In this document: one piece after another, positions 3 through 42,733 of the stretch | How positions within the stretch are numbered: position 1 is the stretch's first letter | Layout: each line of letters starts with the position of its first letter | Origin: Vulcanimicrobiales bacterium | GTDB lineage: Bacteria; Vulcanimicrobiota; Vulcanimicrobiia; Vulcanimicrobiales; Vulcanimicrobiaceae | NCBI GenBank assembly: GCA_038231455.1 | Contig: JBBRLI010000001.1 | Coordinates: 64,001 to 128,000 of the forward strand | Reading direction: 5' to 3' | Length of the DNA: 64,000 nucleotides | Position numbers and translations under genes: made by a program | Notes under the pieces: generated by a model | The model's database searches: none | Seen by the model: the letters and a program-made list of their open reading frames with translations, nothing else | What the model was told of the DNA's origin: nothing

Positions 3-2417
3 AGCACGATCGTCGATGCGGCCGCGAAGACCGCCGAACTCAACGCCGCGCAACTTGCAAGCCTAGTCGAAAACACAAAAGAACAACGGATCGTCGTGGA
101 CAGCGCCGCCGCCGCCATCGCGCAAGTCGATCGCGGCGCCGCGCAAGTTGCCGAGACAACCGATGGACTACGCGCCGTCACCGGGACGGTTGCAACATCG
201 ACGAGCGGCTATGAAGCGGGGATCGATCGCGTGATCGGGGCGCTCGCTCGGCTGCGTACGACCGTCGACGACGCCTCGTCGTTCGCGACCGCGACGGAGA
301 CGGGATCCACCGGCATCATCGTTTTTCTCGATCGCCTCCAACGCATCGCGCGCCAGGCACGCCTGCTCGCGATCAACGCAGCGATCGAGGCGGCTCACCT
401 CGGCGATCTTGGCCGCGGTTTCGTGATCGTCGCAAATCAAATCAAGACGCTCTCGTCCTCGACCTCCGACTCGGCTCTCAACGTCGCGAAAATTCATAAA
501 GAACTGCACGACTCGAGCACACGCGTAGAAACCGCGATTCGCGGTTCGGCAGATATCGTCACCGCGCTCGAGCGCGATCTTCAGGATGCGCGCACGGGCT
601 CGGCCCGCGCGCGCGAACTCATGCGCGATATTGACGCATCGATCGGCGATGTGGCGACGATCGCCGCCGAACAAAGCGCGAACCTCTCCTCGATTGCTAG
701 CGGCGTCGAGCAGCTTGCAAGCCATGCCCAAGACGTCGCCCTCGCGGCCGAACGCGCCGGGCAACTGGCACTGGGCGAGGCGATCGACCACCTCAAGCAA
801 ACTATCGCGATCTATAAGCTCGGCGAACCGAGCGCCGCGATGACAACGACCGTCGCGGTCGACGACCTGCCCGTGGGCCTCCACGCCGCCGCTCAAGCAC
901 TGCGCGATCTCGTCGACCGGGATCAACGCGATATGCTCGCATCAATTATGGTGGTCGCGGTTGCCATCGCGCGCAATAGTTACGAATGGAAGGCGATTGC
1001 GGCGTCGCTGGTCGCCTTACAGAATCAGCTTCAAACAACGACGAACGCGATCGAAGAAACGGCAAACGCCGCCCAAGCTGCCGGCGTTGCGTCCATTCGT
1101 CTGCGCGCATCGCTCGATGCGATGCGGAGCGGCTTTGGCTCCTCCGTCGATGAACTGCAACGCGCACTCGAACGCGTCGCGCGCGTTCGAGAAACGGTCC
1201 GCGAGACCGAGTCCTACGTGGAGGCAACGACGGCGGCGGCGGGCCGCGCGGCGGCAATACTCGATCTGATTGAAGATATTTCGAGTGAGACCACCCTCCT
1301 ATCGTTTAACGCTGCAATCGAAGCGGCTCACGCGGGCGATGCGGGCAGCGGCTTCGGTATTATTGCAAACGAGATCCGCCTGCTCGCCGAGGCAACCTCA
1401 CAGTCGACGGCGCAGATTGCGACCGTGATCGAGGGCATTGCCGAGGCGAGCCGCGACATGCGGACGACATCCGCTTCCGCCGTTACGCAAACCGCCGACG
1501 TACAGACCGAGACCAAAGACGTTCAAGAAACCATCATGCACTTGCGCGGCGAACTGGACTCCACACTCGGACAGGCTGCCGAAGTAGCAACGGTCGTCGA
1601 GCAACAACTCATCGCCCTGCGCAACGTTCGTGCCGCAGCAGAGATCGCCGTGAACCGCACCCGCAGCGACACCGCCGCTGCAACCGACGGACGTCGACTC
1701 GAGCTCGCCATGCTCGGCATGCGGGCGCACGTGCTCGCCGCGCGTCGACCGCTCGGCATCGTCGCCGAAACGATTCGCGAGATCGGTCTGCGCGTCGCCG
1801 AAAAAATGGACGGCGTCTTCGATGCAGCAATCGAGCGCGGTGCGATTACGATCGATGACTGCTACGATACGAATTACATTCCGATCGTCGGAGAGAAGAT
1901 CGAAGAACTCGGCCGCCTTTTCGACGTCACAAAAGTACCTGAGGCGGGATTCAACCCGCCAAAATTTGCCACACGCTACGACCGCGCCGTTGAAGACGGA
2001 TTCAACGCGCTCATCGACGCGTCGGTTCCCGAGAACGCGTCGATCAAAGCCATGTTCGCCGTGGACCTTAACGGCTATTGCTTCGGCCACTTTCACAAAT
2101 GCCGGCAAGCGTGGACCGGCGACTACACGCGCGACCTGAACGATAACCGCATCAAACGCTTCTTCGATGACGAGCTGAGCCTGCGGTGTTCTCGCGTGGG
2201 TCTCGGGGCGGAATCCGATAATCTCCCCAAACGCACCGCGTATGCGGCGTTCAAAGAACGCGGCTGCGTCCTACGCCTGGAGAATCCGCGGCCGTGGGCG
2301 ATCTTCACCTACGCGCGCGACACGGGGATCGTGTATAACGATCTTTCGGTCAGTCTCTTCGCGCAAGGGCACCGCGTTGGCACCATCCGCATCATCTACG
2401 ATGCCGACGTCGTTTAA
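3..2417 (+). CDS. Methyl-accepting chemotaxis protein with two tandem signalling domains and a C-terminal sensor-like domain (5' end outside the window)
   Basis: Frame open from nt 3. Two MCP hairpin-tip motifs: LLAINAAIEAAHLGDLGRGFVIVANQIK and LLSFNAAIEAAHAGDAGSGFGIIANEIR. C-terminal domain contains YDTNY..PPKFATRYD..DLNGY..YARDTG. Confidence 0.9.
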   Translation, partial: STIVDAAAKTAELNAAQLASLVENTKEQRIVVDSAAAAIAQVDRGAAQVAETTDGLRAVTGTVATSTSGYEAGIDRVIGALARLRTTVDDASSFATATETGSTGIIVFLDRLQRIARQARLLAINAAIEAAHLGDLGRGFVIVANQIKTLSSSTSDSALNVAKIHKELHDSSTRVETAIRGSADIVTALERDLQDARTGSARARELMRDIDASIGDVATIAAEQSANLSSIASGVEQLASHAQDVALAAERAGQLALGEAIDHLKQTIAIYKLGEPSAAMTTTVAVDDLPVGLHAAAQALRDLVDRDQRDMLASIMVVAVAIARNSYEWKAIAASLVALQNQLQTTTNAIEETANAAQAAGVASIRLRASLDAMRSGFGSSVDELQRALERVARVRETVRETESYVEATTAAAGRAAAILDLIEDISSETTLLSFNAAIEAAHAGDAGSGFGIIANEIRLLAEATSQSTAQIATVIEGIAEASRDMRTTSASAVTQTADVQTETKDVQETIMHLRGELDSTLGQAAEVATVVEQQLIALRNVRAAAEIAVNRTRSDTAAATDGRRLELAMLGMRAHVLAARRPLGIVAETIREIGLRVAEKMDGVFDAAIERGAITIDDCYDTNYIPIVGEKIEELGRLFDVTKVPEAGFNPPKFATRYDRAVEDGFNALIDASVPENASIKAMFAVDLNGYCFGHFHKCRQAWTGDYTRDLNDNRIKRFFDDELSLRCSRVGLGAESDNLPKRTAYAAFKERGCVLRLENPRPWAIFTYARDTGIVYNDLSVSLFAQGHRVGTIRIIYDADVV

Positions 2418-20246: not shown

Positions 20247-21389
20247 TTAGCGGAGCAGCGAGCCGATCAGGCTTTGCTGGGCGTTGGCATTGTGCAGGAC
20301 GTAAACATCGATCTGCGCTTGGAGTTGGCTCTGCGAGAAGTTCGATGCGGCCTGGGCGTAGTTGAGATCAGCGATGTTCGATTCCGATTGCTGTAAATTC
20401 GCCGATGCAATGTTGTTATTGTTGATGCTCTCGGAGATCGAGACTTCTTGAGCTCCGACTTGCGCTTGGGCGCTCGAAAGATTTTGCAAGGCGGTGTTAA
20501 TCTGTCCTTGCGCGTTCGTCGCCGTCGCACTCGATGAAAAGTCGATGTTGATCAGTCCGAGCGAACTCGAGCTTGCATTCGGCAGCGTTAGTTGCGTCGT
20601 CGCGCCCTGGTTTGCACCGGTTTGAACGGTTGCGCCGCTACCGGTCGTTCCGGCGGTCGCGCCGGTGACTTGAATCGTCGCCGTCGTGCCGATATCGAGC
20701 GTGCTCACATTGCCGACGGTAAACGTCGTGCCATTGACCGTATTCGTCGAACCGGCGACGACGCTGCCGAGATTTGTTACAACACCGGTCGCCGTATCGG
20801 TTGAGCTGACCGACACAAGAGCCGTTCCGCCGCCACCGTCGACGACGCCGAGCGAAATCGTTTCAGCCGACGCACCGGCCGCCGCCGTCACGCCATTTGC
20901 GAGCTGGCCGCCGGTTGCAAGATCGGCGTTTGAAGTCGTCTGCGCGCTTGCGTTCGTCGCAGGCGTCGTTCCTTGGAAGCTGCCGTCGAGGAGCTGGTTG
21001 CCGTTGAACGACGTGTTTTGCGCGTTCGTGTTAATTTGTTGGACGAGTTGATTTGCTTGCGCCTGAAGTGCCGAGCGATCCGTCGGACTCAGAAAATCAT
21101 TTGCGGCCTGGATGGCAAGACTGGAGAGCTGCTGGAGCGCGCTACTCGTCGAGGACAGCGCTCCATCAGCCACGGCAGCGGCGTTGCCCGCGTCCTGTGC
21201 GTTCGCAGCCGATTGATCGAAGCTATCGACTTGCGCCTGAAGCGCTGCCGCAATTGCGGCGCCGGAAGGGTCCGATGCAGCAGACGTAATGCGTTTGCCG
21301 CTCGAGAGCTGATTTGCCTGATTGAGCAGGTTCGCTTGAATCTGCTGAAGTGAATTCGCGGCTGTCGCGGACCCGATACCGAATGACAT
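20247..21389 (-). CDS. Flagellin-like protein (orphan, divergent)
   Basis: LSSGKRITSAASDPSG, ADGAL, TSFNGNQLLDG, QTGAN, VGAQ, SESNIADLNYA. Confidence 0.9.
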   Translation of the reverse strand: MSFGIGSATAANSLQQIQANLLNQANQLSSGKRITSAASDPSGAAIAAALQAQVDSFDQSAANAQDAGNAAAVADGALSSTSSALQQLSSLAIQAANDFLSPTDRSALQAQANQLVQQINTNAQNTSFNGNQLLDGSFQGTTPATNASAQTTSNADLATGGQLANGVTAAAGASAETISLGVVDGGGGTALVSVSSTDTATGVVTNLGSVVAGSTNTVNGTTFTVGNVSTLDIGTTATIQVTGATAGTTGSGATVQTGANQGATTQLTLPNASSSSLGLINIDFSSSATATNAQGQINTALQNLSSAQAQVGAQEVSISESINNNNIASANLQQSESNIADLNYAQAASNFSQSQLQAQIDVYVLHNANAQQSLIGSLLR

Positions 21390-37819: not shown

Positions 37820-38290
37820 CTAGCCTGGAAGTTGGGTGGTCGTGCGGCGGCTGGTGCCCGGTCGTCGCGCGGTAACGGTACGCGGGGGAGTTGCGGATTC
37901 GGCTTTGGGAGCCGAAGCCCCGTAGAGTTCGGTGCGCAGCCGATCGATCGAGGCGGCGAGCGTCTCGAGGTACGGCAGCATATTCGATTTGATACGCTCG
38001 AGGCGGTCGCGACCGGCGGTGGTGATCGCATACATCCGGCGCGAGCGCTTGGTCGGATGCTCCCACTCTCCCGTTATGAAGCCGCGCTCTTCGAGGCGGC
38101 GCAGGAGGGGGTAAATCGTATTGGTGTTCACGGCGACGAGGTCAGAGCAGGTTGCTTCGATCCGCTGCATGAGCCCAAAGCCATGGTCGGGCCCGCCCTC
38201 CAGCATGTGGAGCACGAGCACCGGGAAAATCGTCTTGCTTTTGGCTGGACCTTTAAGGACTTCGTCGGCCCGTGCTTTGGTGGTCGCCAT
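37820..38290 (-). CDS. PadR-family transcriptional regulator heading the beta-oxidation operon
   Basis: HGFGL, IYPLLRRLEERG, RRMYAIT..G. Confidence 0.92.
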   Translation of the reverse strand: MATTKARADEVLKGPAKSKTIFPVLVLHMLEGGPDHGFGLMQRIEATCSDLVAVNTNTIYPLLRRLEERGFITGEWEHPTKRSRRMYAITTAGRDRLERIKSNMLPYLETLAASIDRLRTELYGASAPKAESATPPRTVTARRPGTSRRTTTQLPG

Positions 38291-38355
38291 GATCAGTAAG
38301 AGATTGATAGTTTTACTATTGGTCAAAATCCTTCAAACCAGCATCCTTTGCGCGC

Positions 38356-38739
38356 TCCCAAGATTCTCTCGCAGAACGATCCGGAGTTTCTCGACCAACC
38401 ATCTCGAGAATCGAACGAGGCATCGCCGACGACGTCGGAATCGACGTGGTCCAACGACTTGCCGACGGACTCGGTGTCGCCGTTTCTGAACTCTTCATTC
38501 TCGAAAGCGCAGAAGTTGTGGACGACGCTGAACTCGCTCGGCGTGCCGCAGACGATGACGACGCATTTATTGATTCCGACGCTCTCTCTGCTGCCATCGA
38601 TGAAGCAACCGGAACACCAATCGAACGATACTCCGCTGCTGGGCGTCCAGCCGTGGGTCGTTACATTTCACCCAAAAGTAGCCAAAGAAATAACTCGACC
38701 GGGCCTGTCCGACTCAGCATTTCGACCGACGATTGGTGA
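38356..38739 (+). pseudogene. XRE/HTH antitoxin, 5'-truncated
   Basis: SQDSLAERSGVSRPTISRIERG..VVQRLADGLGVAVSELF is a Cro/C1 HTH lacking helix 1; no in-frame start between stop 38308-38310 and GTG 38446. Confidence 0.7.
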
Positions 38740-38944
38740 CTTGCTCGAACGTCTGAAGAACGATCCCAAGCAATTCGCGAAGAAAAATGGCGATCTAAGC
38801 AGCGCTCGCGCAGCCGAAGCAGCTTTCAACGACGGCGTCGTTTGGCGGGGTGGTTTCACACTTGACGAAAAAAGGCGGACCGTGAAAATCATCTCGTTCG
38901 GCCCGCACGATCGCGCCTATGCGCAAGCGAAGCGCCGTCTCTAG
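38600..38944 (+). CDS. RelE/ParE-superfamily toxin (putative)
   Basis: WVVTFHPKVAKE..LERLKNDP..WR..FTLDE..VKIISFGPHDRAY; basic, 114 aa; overlaps the HTH ORF. Confidence 0.7.
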   Translation: MKQPEHQSNDTPLLGVQPWVVTFHPKVAKEITRPGLSDSAFRPTIGDLLERLKNDPKQFAKKNGDLSSARAAEAAFNDGVVWRGGFTLDEKRRTVKIISFGPHDRAYAQAKRRL

Positions 38945-38973: not shown

Positions 38974-39738
38974 TTACTTGCTCGTGTCCATCCGGTGACT
39001 CTTCAGAATCGCAGCAGCCTCGGATCCGGCGATGTAGGCGGCGAAAGCCTTCGCCGCCGAACTATGGGCCGACGCCTTGACCGCCGCGACCATCGTAGGA
39101 ACGGTAACGAGGTCCTCGGCGGTCAGCTTGATCATCGAAAGTTTGGCCGGATCGATATTTGATTCGTAGAGAATCGCGGCATCAGCCGTTCCGCTTTCGA
39201 CCATTTCGGTTACTTTGGCGGTGTCGTTCTTTTTACCGACGACGTTCGCTTCGTACTTGGTTCCGAAGTCTTTGCCGTAATGCGCGGTCATCTTCTCGAC
39301 GACTTGCGCTTCCCACGTGCCGGTCGTCGTGCCGGGGCTGCCTTCGGCGATTTTCACGCCCGGTTTCATCAAATCTTTTGCTTCTTTGATCTTGCCCGCT
39401 GCCGATTTATTGACACCGATCGCGGCTCTATTCGTGTAGACGTGCACCGGCGAATCGAGCCCACCGCCACTTGCGGCGATCGCGGGCTCCGCGATGAGCA
39501 CGATGTCTGCAGCCGAGCCGCTCGCGACCGTTTTTGCGATAACGTTACTGCCAACGTAGCTCGCACTTACGGAGATATCGGGATGAGACTTTTCATAGGC
39601 GGCGATGATGTCGGTGAAAGGTGCCTTTGCGTTCGATGCGACGAGCGCGACGAGCGTCGTTTTGTCGGCGGCAAAGGCCGTGCCGCTAAGCGCGAACACA
39701 AATGCCAGAGAAGCCGCGCTATAAAGACGGAAGTTCAT
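38974..39738 (-). CDS. ModA-like periplasmic oxyanion-binding protein (paralog 2)
   Basis: Signal peptide [35 protein letters not shown]. Confidence 0.85.
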   Translation of the reverse strand: MNFRLYSAASLAFVFALSGTAFAADKTTLVALVASNAKAPFTDIIAAYEKSHPDISVSASYVGSNVIAKTVASGSAADIVLIAEPAIAASGGGLDSPVHVYTNRAAIGVNKSAAGKIKEAKDLMKPGVKIAEGSPGTTTGTWEAQVVEKMTAHYGKDFGTKYEANVVGKKNDTAKVTEMVESGTADAAILYESNIDPAKLSMIKLTAEDLVTVPTMVAAVKASAHSSAAKAFAAYIAGSEAAAILKSHRMDTSK

Positions 39739-39803
39739 AGTGAGAATCCTTTTCGGATTCGAGCACCCGATCTCGAGAGATGAGGGGACGGGACGTAAAC
39801 GCG

Positions 39804-41870
39804 CTAGGCGTAGGACGTGGTGAGTTCCGGAATTTCGACGTAGTGATCGAAAGCGATGGTTTCGTCGGCGAGGAGCGCGCGCGCATCGTGTTCGTTGCTC
39901 GAGACTTGGAATGCGGCAACGAGTTCGCTCAGGCTTGCCGCCTGTTCGCGCAGTGAGGATGCGGTTGCATCGATCTCTTGGATTTGGGCGGCGAGTTCGG
40001 CGGTTGACGCCGAGACTTCGTCGGCCTTGGCCGATTGATCGATGGCAGCCGCGGCGACCGGGCGCAGGATGTCCGAGACGTTGTCCGTGGTGGACTGCAT
40101 CTCGCCGGCACCGGCGGCGTTTTGCTCGACAACAGCGGAAACGCTGCCGACGTTTTGGGTGAGCGTATCGCTCGTTACGCGCATGCGGCGCGCGCGCTCT
40201 GCGAGATCGTCGGCGACGTCGCGCGTCCGGCCGATAGCGCCCGCGACGACGCCAAGCGAACTGGTCGCCTTACCGGCGAGCGTGCGTCCTTCGGTCATCG
40301 CAGAAGTCGAAGCACTCATTGCGCGAGCCACGTTGGCAGTTTCGGCGCGAATGGCCGTAAGGATACCCGAGATTTCACGCGTCGAGACTGCCGAGCGTTC
40401 TGCGAGTTTACGAACTTCATCGGCGACGACGGCGAAGCCGCGGCCGTGTTCGCCCGCACGTGCGGCTTCGATTGCGGCGTTGAGCGCGAGCAGGTTTGTC
40501 TGATCGGCAATGTCTTCGATCGCGTTGAGAATCTCGACGACGGCATCCGAGCGCTGCTCGAGCGTCTGCATCGCAGCACTTGCAGCTTCCGATTGCTTTT
40601 GTAGGCGTTCCATTGCGTGCTCGGTTTGTGAGACGGCCTCGCCGCCGCTTTTCGCTTCTTCGTTTGCTGCGCGAGCGGCCTCGGAGAGCGCATCGCCCAG
40701 GCCCACGAGCGAGCGGAGTTCTTCGTTGAGTTCTTGCACGGCGATCGCGGAGGCGGCAACGGCCGTCGCCTGATCGACGGAGCCTTGCGCGATTTGCGTC
40801 GCGACACGGGTGAGTTGCTCGAGGGCTTCGCCGCCGCGTCGGCCGCGGTCGGCGGTATCGCGCGCACCGTGCGCGACGGTCAGCATCGCTTGCGAGATGC
40901 CTTCCACGGCGGTGCCGCTATGCGCGGTCGCCGTCGAAACTTCGGTACTGGCGATGAGCACGTTATTCGCGGTGAGCGCGACCGAACCGACGAGATCGCG
41001 CAACTTGAACGTTGCGGCACGATATTCGCGGGCGGTGTTGCCGAGTTCGGTTGCGAGACGATTGAAGTTGGTGGAGAGTTGCGCGATCTCGTCCGTCCCG
41101 GACATCACGATCGGCTTTGGTTCGAGTTCGAGCGTCGAACGCAGGTCACCGGCCGCAAGATCTTTGAAGGCCGACGAGAGCGCGGCGAATTCGTGTTCGA
41201 CGATCGAGCGCAGACCTTCACTGAGGATACGCAGGCGACGGGAGAGCGACATACTTAAGAAGATCGCAAAAGCGGTTCCAAGGATTACCGCGATGACTCC
41301 TAGGGTGATAAACGTGATTCGGGAGCGATCTTGCTGCGCGACCAAGCCCGTAAAGAGATCGTTGAAAAGCGCCGGCGTGCCGATCGATCCGTCATCGACG
41401 TACGGACCGACCTTTTGATATTCATCGACGAGGCCTTTGAGTTTTTGCAATCCGGCGACGGCGCCCGGATGGTTGCCCGCTTGAGCAACTTTCAGGACGG
41501 CATCGAATTGTGATTCGACAGCGGTAAGCTGCGGCTCAGCTTCATCCGTCCATTTTTTGAAGATCGGGTGATTCGAACCGAAGATTTTGAGCGCCGTCAG
41601 ATCTTCGTCGAGACGCGTGCGCGCCGCATCCATCTCGTCGAGATATTTTTTGTCGCCCGTCGCTACGAAACCGCGCAGCGCTGACTCGACAAGGACCACT
41701 TGCAGCACGGAGTCGCGAGTCTCACGCGTACTCGGGATGGTCTGCATGATGGTCTTGGTTTGAGCGAGCGACTGAACGATCGAGGTTGTCGAGAGAATCG
41801 CCTGTGCGACGATCAAGATCACGCACACGCCAAACCCGACGCCCAGTTTCGCAGCGATGGGCCAACGCAT
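39804..41870 (-). CDS. Methyl-accepting chemotaxis protein (2 TM, CHASE3-like sensor, HAMP, MA)
   Basis: [16 protein letters not shown] (CHASE3-like), DEIAQL (HAMP), [35 protein letters not shown]. Confidence 0.95.
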
Positions 41871-41871
41871 C

Positions 41872-42645
41872 TTAGTTTGCGACCTCGTGATGGTGCGACT
41901 TGAAGATCGCGGCAGCTTCGGGGCCTGCGATGAATTTTGCGAAGTCTTTCGCCTGAGCGCCGTGGGCCGAGGCTTTTACCGAAGCGACTACTGCAGGAAC
42001 GACGACTTCGTCTTCACCGGTGAGCTTGACCATGATCAGTTTGCTCGGGTCGATATCGGCTTCATAGAGGATTGCGGCATCGGCCGCACCGCTCTCGACA
42101 GCGTCCGCGACTTTCGTGGTGTCCGTTTTTTTGGTGGCGACGTTGGCTTCATACTTGGTACCGAAGTCGGCTCCGTAGTGCGCCGTCATCTTCGCGACGG
42201 CTGCGGCCTCGAAGGTGGCGACGGTAGAACCAGGGGTGCCCTCAGCAATACGGATGCCTTGCTTGGCAAGGTCCTTTGCTTCTTTGACCTTCGCCGACGA
42301 CGCCTTATTCACGCCGATTGCCGTGCGATTGCGAAAGATGACGACCGGTGAATCAAGCCCACCGTTTGTACCGGCGACGTTCGGCTGTGCCATCACGACA
42401 ACGTCGGCGGCTGCACCGCTAGCGATCTCGCCCGCGATGATCTTGCTGCCCGCGAAGCTCGGCGAAATCGTCACATCGGGATGGCTTTTTTCGTAGGCCT
42501 TCACGATATCGGCAAACGCGGTCTTTGCGTTGGGAGCGACGAGCGCGACGAGCGTTGTCTTGTCGGCTGCTTTGGCGCCCGTGCCCGAAGCAATGAGAAG
42601 GGAGACCGCACTCATAACGAGCGCGCCCAATTGAGCGGTTTTCAC
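41872..42645 (-). CDS. ModA-like periplasmic oxyanion-binding protein (paralog 1)
   Basis: Signal peptide; [29 protein letters not shown]; clear paralog of 38974-39738. Confidence 0.85.
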
Positions 42646-42706
42646 AGTTTTCGTCCTTACAAAGTGAGCATGCCTACGGTCTAACGACCGGCGGCCTTCT
42701 CTGGGT

Positions 42707-42733
42707 GTATCGGCAGAAGAGACAAGCGCTTGA
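42707..42733 (-). promoter_or_regulatory. Sigma28 (FliA/SigD)-type promoter
   Basis: Minus strand TCAA-N15-GCCGATAC versus consensus TAAA-N15-GCCGATAA, 61 nt upstream of the GTG at 42645. Confidence 0.75.

Follow-up and report, generated by a model that had tools for sequence, protein, structure and literature searches.

Two ModA-fold binding proteins encoded with a CHASE3 chemoreceptor in an uncultured Vulcanimicrobiota bacterium: a probable binding-protein-dependent sensing module

Chemoreceptors that sense their ligands indirectly, by way of binding proteins, are thought to be common, yet few have been documented, and most of those few make use of a transporter's binding protein. A locus in the 64,000-nucleotide stretch of DNA analysed here (the window) raises the question of whether two solute-binding proteins (SBPs), encoded on either side of a chemoreceptor (MCP), serve that receptor, a transporter, or both. 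The DNA comes from an uncultured soil or sediment bacterium known as an Eremiobacterota/Vulcanimicrobiota MAG. The preliminary description had given the minus-strand order as promoter, SBP1, a 1-nt gap, a CHASE3/HAMP chemoreceptor and SBP2, which the open reading frames match exactly:

42708..42733, minus strand: candidate sigma-28 (FliA)-type promoter, TCAA-N15-GCCGATA, 62-63 nt before the SBP1 GTG
41872..42645, minus strand: SBP1, ModA-fold (SBP_bac_11) periplasmic binding protein, 257 aa, GTG start; Sec-type signal peptide, read by eye, ending in AKA before AD
39804..41870, minus strand: MCP, CHASE3/HAMP chemoreceptor, 688 aa
MCP residues ~5-27, minus strand: TM1, read by eye
MCP residues ~28-184 (41319-41789), minus strand: periplasmic CHASE3 helical bundle
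MCP residues ~185-209, minus strand: TM2, read by eye
MCP residues 230-276 (41043-41183), minus strand: HAMP (Pfam, 32.6 bits, cut-off 25)
MCP residues 396-580 (40131-40685), minus strand: MCPsignal signalling domain (Pfam, 137.4 bits, cut-off 34.6)
39739..39803, minus strand: 65-nt spacer from the MCP stop to the SBP2 ATG, with AAGGA ahead of the ATG
38974..39738, minus strand: SBP2, second ModA-fold periplasmic binding protein, 254 aa, ATG start; signal peptide read from the sequence, ending in AFA before AD

The SBP1 stop codon lies 1 nt from the MCP ATG, all three genes are on one strand, and no terminator-like site was found in the MCP-SBP2 spacer or elsewhere within the three-gene run. 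The corresponding spacer in genome G001 contains an additional insertion of about 50 nt, so that SBP2 may have a promoter of its own. The neighbouring ORFs encode an IclR regulator, an aldehyde dehydrogenase-like protein, a ParE-like protein and a PadR protein; as already remarked in the preliminary description, neither a modB permease nor a modC ATPase is found among them. The CHASE3 domain of the receptor (Pfam match to residues 40-143, 32.6 bits, cut-off 28) is flanked by a transmembrane helix on either side, HAMP and MCPsignal come after the second helix, and the protein is 89-90% identical to its counterparts in G001 and the metagenome contig L072. The AlphaFold2 model of residues 28-186 is all-helical (pLDDT 78.8), and its best Foldseek match, a weak one (E 0.013), is the CHASE3 structure 3va9.

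Boxes of the sigma-28 consensus are of the form TAAA-N15-GCCGATAA, and the element upstream of SBP1, TCAA-N15-GCCGATAC, is of this type. It is the only match to the motif in the window, whereas shuffled sequences gave a mean of 0.06 matches, with at least one match in 6 of 100 shuffles. The blocks CTCAAGCG and TTCTGCCGA are kept in G001 and L072 while the spacer between them varies, a footprint drawn from three sources, and the genome encodes FliA (263.8 bits, above cut-off); the sigma28-type promoter proposed earlier can thus be retained as a candidate at 42733-42708. Similar motifs lie upstream of cheA (C77) and of a flagellin gene (C6), and a perfect TAAA-N16-GCCGATAC precedes a stand-alone SBP relative (L077). 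Genome-wide, the strict motif has 6 matches against roughly 2 expected from our own base-composition estimate. No such motif was found upstream of the distant SBP-MCP pairs L104, L111-L113, L115 and L116; the upstream stretch of L114 ends at a contig edge. Since E. coli modA and modB are listed as members of the sigma-F regulon in the part of PMC1935009 that concerns them, a sigma-28 promoter alone is no proof of sensing.

Stronger guidance comes from the conservation of the gene pair. With the receptor sensor domain alone as query, a search of 401 genomes of the phylum returned 10 places in 7 genomes, and at 9 of the 10, which span four genera with identities as low as about 25%, a ModA-like gene stands immediately upstream on the same strand. 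These nine are the pairs of G000 and G001 and seven of the eight other places fetched, the exception being L117, whose receptor homologue has no SBP beside it. An exported SBP coupled to an MCP with a periplasmic sensor is also present on the metagenome contigs L072 and L073. Where start codons are clear, the two genes are 1-3 nt apart, and across 10 loci SBP identity follows sensor-domain identity (r = 0.94 over 45 pairs, which include non-independent kin). G194 and G350 have two pairs each, with a distinct SBP kept beside each receptor, and in G161 the pair sits within a che operon, in the one-strand order CheC/CheX, SBP, MCP, CheA. A second SBP_bac_11 gene lies just downstream of the MCP in G194 (C13), G350 (C250) and G377 (C8), where it belongs to a different, sulfate-binding-like subfamily; by sequence comparison, the SBP-MCP-SBP sandwich of this second lineage is an independent assembly. 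Four closer relatives (L074-L077, at 39-63% identity) occur on their own, no MCP being present in the flanking sequence retrieved, so that the SBP can exist without an adjacent receptor. As for transporter genes beside the pairs, the only one is a permease of the ProW/choline type at L111, about 190 nt downstream, and the stretches holding pairs contain no ModB-like match. Because no transporter accompanies the SBPs and relatives keep the gene pair, the SBPs are most likely the detachable sensors of the receptor, and we consider the locus to be probably a binding-protein-dependent chemoreceptor module. The synteny check called for in the preliminary description came out in favour of the pair.

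Both SBPs belong to the Pfam family SBP_bac_11 (PF13531), with E values of 1e-29 and 1.8e-33 and scores of 104.4 and 116.7 bits (cut-off 25). Their top NCBIfam match is modA (TIGR01256), but membership of that equivalog requires at least 62.5 bits, the curated cut-off; SBP1 (53.5 bits) and SBP2 (47.3 bits) fall short of it. The earlier label of divergent ModA-like proteins is accurate, because modA is the best match of both and both score below its cut-off. In trees they form a separate, long-branched clade, at 25-30% identity to the canonical modA-modB genes of relatives. The two share 65% identity over 237 aa and, at the DNA level, 76% over a 96-nt stretch (spacing 2898), which bears out their description as close paralogs; the long identical blocks also reported were somewhat generously named, as identical peptides reach about 12 residues. 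SBP1 orthologs in G001 and L072 are 79% identical, and SBP2, which sits on a long branch, is, judging from the sequences, a duplicate of an SBP1-like gene confined to the genus. The AlphaFold2 model of SBP2 (pLDDT 94.2) has the two-lobe fold, with Lmo1041, ModA, PEB3 and AcfC as top Foldseek matches and target-length-normalised TM-scores of up to 0.89 for structures of Lmo1041 and ModA, the latter with Foldseek E values of 1e-15 to 1e-13.

We considered whether SBP1 and/or SBP2 might signal and, like maltose-binding protein (MBP) of E. coli, also feed an oxyanion to a distant transporter, for instance a WtpB/ModB-like permease with an unlinked ATPase. The SBPs are the only TIGR01256 matches in the whole genome, so that a role in oxyanion uptake is conceivable, and the organism needs molybdenum, as it encodes MoaA (above cut-off), three molybdopterin-oxidoreductase loci and five MoCoBD_1 loci. 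Moreover, a lone Mo/W-type permease (G000:C1:414069-414824) stands by itself, with 96% conservation in the sister genome, the Ser/Ser/Tyr donors of ModA recur in SBP2, and the classical chemotaxis SBPs of E. coli and P. aeruginosa described in the pertinent part of PMC8050422 all double in transport. Against this, the permease best matches WtpB (157 bits), and the genome holds two WtpA-like SBPs (150-156 bits). A WtpA-like SBP is present in 25 of the 26 family genomes with the WtpB-like permease versus 2 of the 10 without it, and the two genes are adjacent in four genomes of the sister family (G037, G038, G039 and G041), whereas our SBP query found no ModA-like SBP in 24 of the 26 permease-bearing genomes. 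A profile search of the whole genome revealed no canonical modABC elsewhere and no modB or modC above cut-off. The preliminary description had itself named, as grounds for refutation, the case of the genome's only ModA working with a distant ModBC: the first half holds as far as TIGR01256 matches go, and the second is disfavoured because the permease tracks the WtpA-like SBPs. The WtpA-like proteins together with the WtpB-like permease account better for the uptake of molybdate or tungstate in this genome, SBP1 and SBP2 seem to be devoted to sensing and not to serve a transporter as well, and we regard such double duty as unlikely.

What the SBPs bind is approached through the pocket. The oxyanion donors of E. 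coli ModA, which we take to be Ser12, Ser39 and Tyr170, are matched in SBP2 by Ser35, Ser64 and Tyr191 in a HMMER alignment with Klebsiella ModA (8k8k); a MAFFT alignment places the first Ser one column away from its HMMER position. Ser64, Asp172-Thr173 and Tyr191 are kept in both SBPs, while SBP1 has Pro or Ala at the first donor position, and the VPxG loop of ModA is replaced by (S/T)T(T/V)(G/A). The distant receptor-linked SBPs have lost the second Ser and the Tyr, and the ModA triad is not kept across the group. The oxyanion ligand proposed earlier is backed in part, by SBP2 with its three aligned side-chain donors, but not by SBP1, with Pro at the first, nor by the other receptor-linked relatives. 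For SBP2 we tentatively favour a tetrahedral oxyanion, for example molybdate, tungstate or sulfate; SBP1 probably has a different ligand. The SBPs might instead act without a small-molecule ligand, as co-receptors, chaperones or modulators, or sense something other than an oxyanion, such as a phospho- or sulfo-organic compound or AI-2. PEB3, AcfC, HptA and AibB sense compounds of this latter sort, and among the Foldseek matches are phospholactate-bound PEB3 (3fj7), AcfC in complex with D-aspartate (4jb7) and HptA (6lkg). According to the portion of PMC10443332 on the family, SBP_bac_11 ligands include 3-phosphoglycerate, PEP and glucose-6-phosphate, and the substitutions in SBP1 and in the distant relatives point the same way. 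The donors retained in SBP2, the residues shared by both SBPs and the nearest structures, which are molybdate or tungstate binders both by sequence (closest, 7tav, E 1e-07) and by fold, stand against this reading, which we judge quite improbable.

A model of two sensor domains with SBP1 scored 0.33, the best control 0.00; the runs shared at least 70% of contacts, with partner pLDDT of at least 88. Among 80 solved complexes 58 attained the mark, as did 2 of 110 mismatched pairs, but passes with a score of 0.60 or less came from only 7 of the 80 and from both passing mismatches. According to the prediction tool, so low a passing score misleads more often than not when the pairing was not already probable; the model therefore lends weak support. 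The earlier proposal of a recruitment of ModA-fold proteins as the sensors for this receptor draws strong comparative support from the 9 of 10 places and from the che operon of G161, and weak support from the complex model. That the SBPs are ordinary or orphan oxyanion proteins, used for transport or scavenging only, beside an MCP that senses directly through CHASE3 would agree with the stand-alone relatives L074-L077, with the sigma-F membership of E. coli modA and modB (PMC1935009, in the part cited above) and with the low complex score, but it is hardly likely, as chance adjacency fails for a tight same-strand pair at 9 of 10 places in four genera down to about 25% identity and leaves unexplained both the placement between cheC/cheX and cheA in G161 and the independently assembled second sandwich.

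The statement in the preliminary description that no characterized system of this kind was known proved wrong: an MCP acting with a binding protein is a kind already known, from AcfB-AcfC, BasB-BasT, CosB-CosT and AibB-TlpB (PMC5976639 and PMC8050422, in the parts on these systems). V. cholerae AcfB-AcfC, encoded on VPI-1, resembles the present locus in combining an MCP with a PEB3/ModA-fold, SBP_bac_11-type protein in one polycistronic operon, for which the passages on the operon in PMC5976639 give no ABC transporter; the same passages report that acfC deletion alters mucin chemotaxis and propose an AcfB-AcfC interaction. AcfC (4jb7) is like SBP2 in structure (TMq 0.71), as a distant relative only. 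The Vibrio system differs in its order (MCP, then SBP), its single SBP, its ToxR/ToxT regulation, as opposed to the FliA-type promoter candidate here, and its suggested ligand, sulfated glycans. In H. salinarum BasB-BasT and CosB-CosT, the binding-protein gene also lies directly upstream of the transducer gene, BasB and CosB are grouped with signalling proteins rather than transporters, and mutants in either gene lose the same taxis (PMC8050422, section on these transducers). These systems are archaeal, with Peripla_BP_6 and OpuAC binding proteins, dCache-like sensors, and amino acids and compatible solutes as ligands.

The model adopted here, a closed, loaded SBP docking on a helical-bundle MCP sensor, is that of E. 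coli Tar-MBP, Trg-RBP/GBP and Tap-DppA and of P. aeruginosa CtpL-PstS; Trg is served by two SBPs, as we propose for this receptor, and PstS-CtpL senses an inorganic oxyanion through an SBP. The SBP genes of those bacteria are located with transporter genes, not with receptor genes, and have both functions (PMC8050422, as far as its account of these pairs extends), whereas here they are encoded with the receptor. H. pylori TlpB likewise uses two different SBPs, AibA and AibB, the latter of the ModA family IPR005950 (PMC8050422, entries for these proteins); it differs in its autoinducer-2 ligand, repellent response and sCache_2 sensor, and in that the SBP genes are listed with transporters. S. 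aureus HptA-HptS also employs an SBP_bac_11 protein for signalling, by stimulation of a membrane sensor (PMC8050422, entry for HptA), which is, however, a histidine kinase rather than a chemoreceptor, with glucose-6-phosphate as ligand. The ModA of ModABC, and WtpA/TupA, have a fold in common with SBP1 and SBP2, and modA is the best NCBIfam match; they differ in that ModA has modB and modC partners, while SBP1 and SBP2 are without them, score below the cut-off, form their own clade and have the VPxG loop replaced. A literature search on CHASE3 chemoreceptors that work with a solute-binding protein gave no match.

For the binding-protein-dependent module that we favour, the FliA-type promoter would transcribe SBP1, the CHASE3 MCP and probably SBP2 along with the late motility genes. 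Both SBPs would be exported to the periplasm, each closing on a small anionic ligand in a ModA-type cleft, and the closed protein would dock on the membrane-distal part of the helical-bundle sensor dimer. The signal would then run along TM2 and HAMP as far as the kinase-control tip, and by CheA/CheY to the flagellar motor. Two SBPs would give one receptor two inputs, with different ligands or affinity ranges. Of this picture, the gene order, the domains, the fold, the conservation of the pair and the lack of a neighbouring partner transporter come from the present data, while co-transcription, docking, the direction of signalling and the ligand are inferences.

A bolder reading, which we hold to be rather unlikely, is that this is the first trace-metal oxyanion taxis receptor to be identified, a CHASE3 MCP reading two transport-free ModA-fold SBPs with different pockets. 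If it were true, the difference at the first donor (Ser versus Pro/Ala) would let the cell compare look-alike oxyanions, for example molybdate with tungstate or sulfate, and cells would swim towards usable molybdenum. It would also provide the first ligand and the first binding-protein partner for any CHASE3 sensor domain, and a lead to the receptor behind the molybdate taxis of P. aeruginosa mentioned in part of PMC6829864. For annotators, labels such as 'molybdate transport substrate-binding protein' (e.g., in JGI names) can hide sensory proteins. The locus and its relatives make up a small natural family in which the SBP is encoded with the receptor and no transporter lies beside it, the SBP pocket is diversified from pair to pair, and a second binding protein was gained twice. 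The family offers a clean system for asking how a helical bundle of the CHASE3 type senses a binding protein in its closed form, how two binding proteins share one receptor, and whether metal oxyanions attract swimming bacteria.

According to the ORF coordinates and domain matches, which bear out the three minus-strand reading frames of the preliminary description, a chemoreceptor gene (MCP) lies between two genes encoding periplasmic ModA-fold binding proteins (SBP1 and SBP2).

41872-42645, minus strand: SBP1, 257 aa, GTG start, signal peptide ending AKA before AD
39804-41870, minus strand: MCP, 688 aa, ATG 1 base past the SBP1 stop
38974-39738, minus strand: SBP2, 254 aa, signal peptide ending AFA before AD

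The spacer between MCP and SBP2 measures 65 nt, and no terminator-like site was found within the SBP1-MCP-SBP2 unit. The two binding proteins, which are 65% identical and both start with a Sec-type signal peptide predicted by reading of the sequence, match the Pfam family SBP_bac_11 (E values of 1e-29 for SBP1 and 1.8e-33 for SBP2); their top NCBIfam model is modA TIGR01256, with 53.5 and 47.3 bits, respectively, under the cut-off of 62.5. In MCP, Pfam places CHASE3 at residues 40 to 143, HAMP at 230 to 276, and the MCP signaling domain at 396 to 580. The binding-protein subfamily is small: a search of 5.8 billion proteins gave 30 at E ≤ 0.001, and one of 1.84 billion representatives gave 13 clusters at E ≤ 1e-30 and 382 at 1e-10.

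Receptors of E. coli end in an NWETF-type pentapeptide. The C terminus of MCP is unlike it, and its coding DNA (39807-39850, minus strand) is conserved in the sister genome G001 and in L072, a locus from our scans. Another MCP of about 866 aa occupies the left edge of the window (3-2417, plus strand), and a further CHASE3-like MCP with no adjoining SBP gene is located just past the right edge (G000:C1:129734-131830 of the source genome). An ORF convergent with SBP2 ends in a ParE-like toxin domain (38348-38944, plus strand) and is adjoined by a PadR regulator gene (37820-38326, minus strand). A PadR gene also adjoins the SBP gene in L072 (5916-6410) and in L077 (5004-5567), and its position may reflect conserved synteny or chance.

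SBP1 and SBP2 are the only TIGR01256 matches in the source genome, a MAG of 3.71 Mb and 93.7% completeness in which the window is G000:C1:64001-128000. That they are the only matches is what would be expected if the two proteins were its only ModA and served a distant ModBC transporter. Judging from its genes, the organism needs molybdenum: the genome encodes a MoaA above the cut-off, three molybdopterin-oxidoreductase loci, and five MoCoBD_1 loci. A canonical modABC was not found elsewhere, as neither modB nor modC reaches its cut-off in this genome. The lone Mo/W-type permease gene (C1:414069-414824) has a response regulator gene on one side and a proline dehydrogenase gene on the other. The permease resembles WtpB most (157 bits, below the cut-off) and is 96% conserved in G001, and two stand-alone WtpA-like SBPs are also present (C31:1436-2374 and C32:23840-24808; 150 to 156 bits to WtpA models, below the cut-off). 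The search of 36 family genomes found the permease type in 26 of them (identity of 49% or more; three partial), and a WtpA-like SBP accompanies it in 25 of these 26, compared with 2 of the 10 permease-less genomes; without G020, G022, G029, and G030, which are flagged as unpublished, the tallies are 21 of 22 and 2 of 10. Furthermore, the two genes are adjacent in G037, G038, G039, and G041, all from the sister family. The SBP query found no ModA-like protein in 24 of the 26 permease-bearing genomes, and the permease type is absent from the five family genomes that have a canonical modA-modB (G005, G015, G023, G025, and G031). Because of this co-occurrence and of the adjacency in the sister family, the WtpA-like SBP is deemed the better-fitting partner of the permease, which would leave SBP1 and SBP2 without an identified transporter. 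Hence, although they are indeed the only ModA-type matches, their service to a distant ModB, and specifically to the lone WtpB/ModB-like permease, is unlikely, since the permease tracks the WtpA-like proteins.

Genes for Mo/W uptake seem scattered in this genome, given one lone permease and two lone WtpA-like SBPs, and no dedicated ATPase for the WtpB-like permease was identified in it. In G007, a relative, one open frame of 706 aa covers the permease together with the proline dehydrogenase region. A molybdopterin oxidoreductase match at G000:C4:68184-69500 contains one in-frame TGA in an open frame of 1102 aa, and may encode a selenocysteine-containing enzyme, for example a formate dehydrogenase.

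When we searched 401 genomes of the phylum with the periplasmic sensor region of MCP alone (residues 25 to 215), matches were obtained at 10 places in seven genomes, which represent four genera of a single family, and the synteny looked for, an SBP gene directly upstream of the receptor gene, was present at 9 of the 10. The source genome and G001 both carry this pair; beyond them, a ModA-like gene lies directly upstream on the same strand at seven of eight places (L104 and L111 to L116), the other one, L117, being a receptor homologue without SBP. The gaps between the two genes are 1 to 3 nt where start codons are unambiguous. Identity to SBP1 drops from 79% to 26-28%, and that of the sensor domain drops from about 90% to 24-27%; the correlation between the two (r = 0.94, 45 pairs from 10 loci) describes co-divergence and is no test, since loci that share ancestry do not count as independent. 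Like the binding proteins, the sensor domains form a small subfamily, with seven members at E ≤ 0.001 among the 5.8 billion. Two genomes, G194 and G350, hold two pairs each, with a distinct SBP for each receptor, and in G161 (L112:2935-8745) genes for CheC/CheX, SBP, MCP, and CheA follow one another on one strand. The CheC/CheX gene preceding the G161 pair is a phosphatase gene.

At three of these places (G194 C13, G350 C250, and G377 C8), a second SBP_bac_11 gene, encoding 300 to 331 aa, follows the receptor gene.

L115:4564-5559: downstream SBP of the second SBP-MCP-SBP arrangement
L114:1016-1900: downstream SBP of the second SBP-MCP-SBP arrangement
L116:4699-5595: downstream SBP of the second SBP-MCP-SBP arrangement

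These proteins, 57 to 78% identical among the three genomes, are sulfate/thiosulfate-binding-like and share about 27% identity with the SBP encoded ahead of the receptor. In G194 C13 this upstream protein reaches 99.8 bits, above the modA cut-off, despite the absence of the second Ser and the Tyr from its aligned sequence. Since the downstream proteins belong to a different subfamily, the sequences indicate that the arrangement with a receptor between two SBPs arose at least twice, independently, and that SBP2 in the window's genus arose by duplication of the upstream gene.

With the binding protein as query, 24 of 61 relatives gave a match at E ≤ 1e-10, and 20 of the matched places were fetched for neighborhood reading. 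G001 repeats the order IclR-SBP1-MCP-SBP2 (identities of 88, 79, 90, and 84%); at 15 places a ModB-like permease adjoins a canonical ModA that is 25 to 30% identical, three (L048 to L050) show neither receptor nor ModB-like gene, and one is a short contig with nothing else on it. A further 19 loci came from genome and metagenome scans: the full arrangement is found in three (L067, which is G001, L072, and L073), whereas stand-alone SBP genes, 39 to 63% identical and with unrelated neighbors, are found in four (L074 to L077), an SBP gene after an MFS transporter gene in 11, and a ModB-like gene adjoining the SBP in one. Taken by themselves, the SBP-based searches suggested a receptor link acquired recently and in this genus only, a reading overturned by the sensor-domain search and the tree.

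In a careful tree of 37 SBPs, three groups have starred support: canonical ModAs beside ModB, an MFS-linked clade, and a long-branched clade with SBP1 and SBP2. Within the genus, the SBP2 proteins group apart on a long stem. A second tree by a quick method, with the new pairs added (32 rows, midpoint root only), places the receptor-linked SBPs of G191, G161, and G350/G194 at the base of the clade of the window proteins and the stand-alone genes nested within it, so that an ancestral link to the receptor is the more likely case and the stand-alone condition is probably derived. A second receptor-linked lineage (G377, G350b, and G194b) falls near the canonical ModAs with modest support (82).

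The MFS-linked clade (L050:2236-6116, L048, L049, L068 to L070, and L078 to L085) is 30 to 36% identical and always lies behind an MFS gene. In 7 of the 11 MFS-linked scan loci and in L050, the gene after the SBP encodes a protein of roughly 555 to 573 aa; its L070 member matches Porin_4 (E value of 4.4e-20), and two other tested members could not be clearly assigned to a family. Such a combination of binding protein, MFS carrier, and possible porin would be unusual.

The sigma-28-type promoter proposed for the operon corresponds to a motif that is present once in the window.

42733-42708, minus strand: promoter-like TCAA-N15-GCCGATAC, 62-63 nt upstream of the SBP1 GTG

Shuffled sequences gave a mean of 0.06 matches, with at least one match in 6 of 100. 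The blocks CTCAAGCG and TTCTGCCGA are unchanged in the source genome, G001, and L072, with a variable spacer between them, and FliA is encoded in the source genome. Similar motifs occur 56 nt upstream of the stand-alone SBP relative in L077 (a perfect TAAA-N16-GCCGATAC), 44 nt upstream of cheA on contig C77 (TAAA-N16-GCCGATA), and upstream of a flagellin on C6 (TAAC-N16-GCCGATAT). Among the genome's other MCPs, a loose match lies upstream of only 3 of 12, and no sigma-28-like motif was seen upstream of the window's flagellin gene (20976-21371, minus strand, Flagellin_N match). The motif scan did not find it upstream of the distant pairs L104, L111 to L113, L115, and L116 (in L114 the contig ends within the upstream stretch), and E. 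coli modAB belongs to the sigma-F regulon according to excerpts of PMC1935009. For these two reasons, the candidate promoter supports motility-linked expression and not sensing as such. The one sequencing run listed as containing the locus is a DNA run, which may be the source sample.

The SBP2 model (pLDDT of 94.2, pTM of 0.86) matches ModA-like Lmo1041 (7tav), ModA and WtpA structures, PEB3, AcfC, sulfate-binding proteins, and HptA. Aligned by HMMER with Klebsiella ModA (8k8k), Ser35, Ser64, and Tyr191 of SBP2 fall on the positions of the side-chain donors Ser12, Ser39, and Tyr170 in E. coli ModA. The first of these is Pro in SBP1 and Ala in its orthologs, a soft comparison because MAFFT shifts this position by one column. 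The pocket columns differ from one receptor-linked SBP to another, with RPD or QMQ replacing the Gly-Ser motif and Phe replacing Tyr in G194b, G350b, and G377, and Leu at the Tyr position in G191, while the canonical ModAs of the relatives are uniform (AAAS, GS, VPxG, (N/D)V, and VY). We read this variation as a sign that the sensors have probably diversified in ligand specificity; our best, albeit tentative, guess for SBP2 is an oxyanion.

The sensor domain (MCP residues 28 to 186) was modeled as an all-helical bundle (pLDDT of 78.8). Foldseek returned no match for it at E ≤ 0.001; the best was 3va9 (E value of 0.013), which a review (PMC12358799) cites as the CHASE3 structure, and weaker rows included chemoreceptor domains with a four-helix bundle, along with the sensor of LytS taken from a complex with XylFII, a binding protein. 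A complex model, of the kind proposed in the preliminary description, was made of two sensor domains and mature SBP1, with a separate alignment for each. It scored 0.33 (runs of 0.28, 0.33, and 0.39) versus 0.00 for the best control, which is weak support; the runs share at least 70% of contacts, with partner pLDDT of at least 88. Of 80 solved complexes, 58 reach the mark, as do 2 of 110 mismatched pairs; scores of 0.60 or under account for just 7 of the 80 and for both passing mismatches. The model is thus a small nudge toward docking of SBP1 on the sensor domain.

The closest precedent is V. cholerae acfB-acfC, where, as described in excerpts of PMC5976639, one operon encodes both an MCP and a periplasmic protein of PEB3/ModA fold, acfC deletion alters mucin taxis, and an AcfB-AcfC interaction is proposed. 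Excerpts of PMC8050422 report binding-protein genes adjoining transducer genes in H. salinarum (BasB-BasT and CosB-CosT), two SBPs, one of the ModA family, for H. pylori TlpB, and an SBP_bac_11 protein dedicated to a kinase in S. aureus (HptA), whereas the chemotaxis SBPs of E. coli and P. aeruginosa are transporter-encoded. Molybdate taxis of P. aeruginosa was seen in a capillary assay, with the receptor not named in the part available of PMC6829864. In the literature searched, subscription journals and supplements being outside its scope, we found no report on a pair of SBP_bac_11 and CHASE3-MCP or on Eremiobacterota chemoreceptors.

In comparison with these systems, the module described here has a CHASE3 sensor, an SBP gene placed ahead of the receptor gene with almost no gap, an SBP on either side of the receptor in an arrangement that arose twice, and an SBP2 pocket that still resembles an oxyanion site. 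The earlier interpretation, that ModA-fold proteins were recruited as sensors of this receptor, is partly supported: it gains from the conservation of the pair, and its oxyanion ligand is backed in part, by the SBP2 pocket. On balance, SBP1-MCP-SBP2 is best read, with somewhat better than even confidence, as a dedicated two-binding-protein chemoreceptor module, one of a small, co-diverging family from a little-studied phylum.
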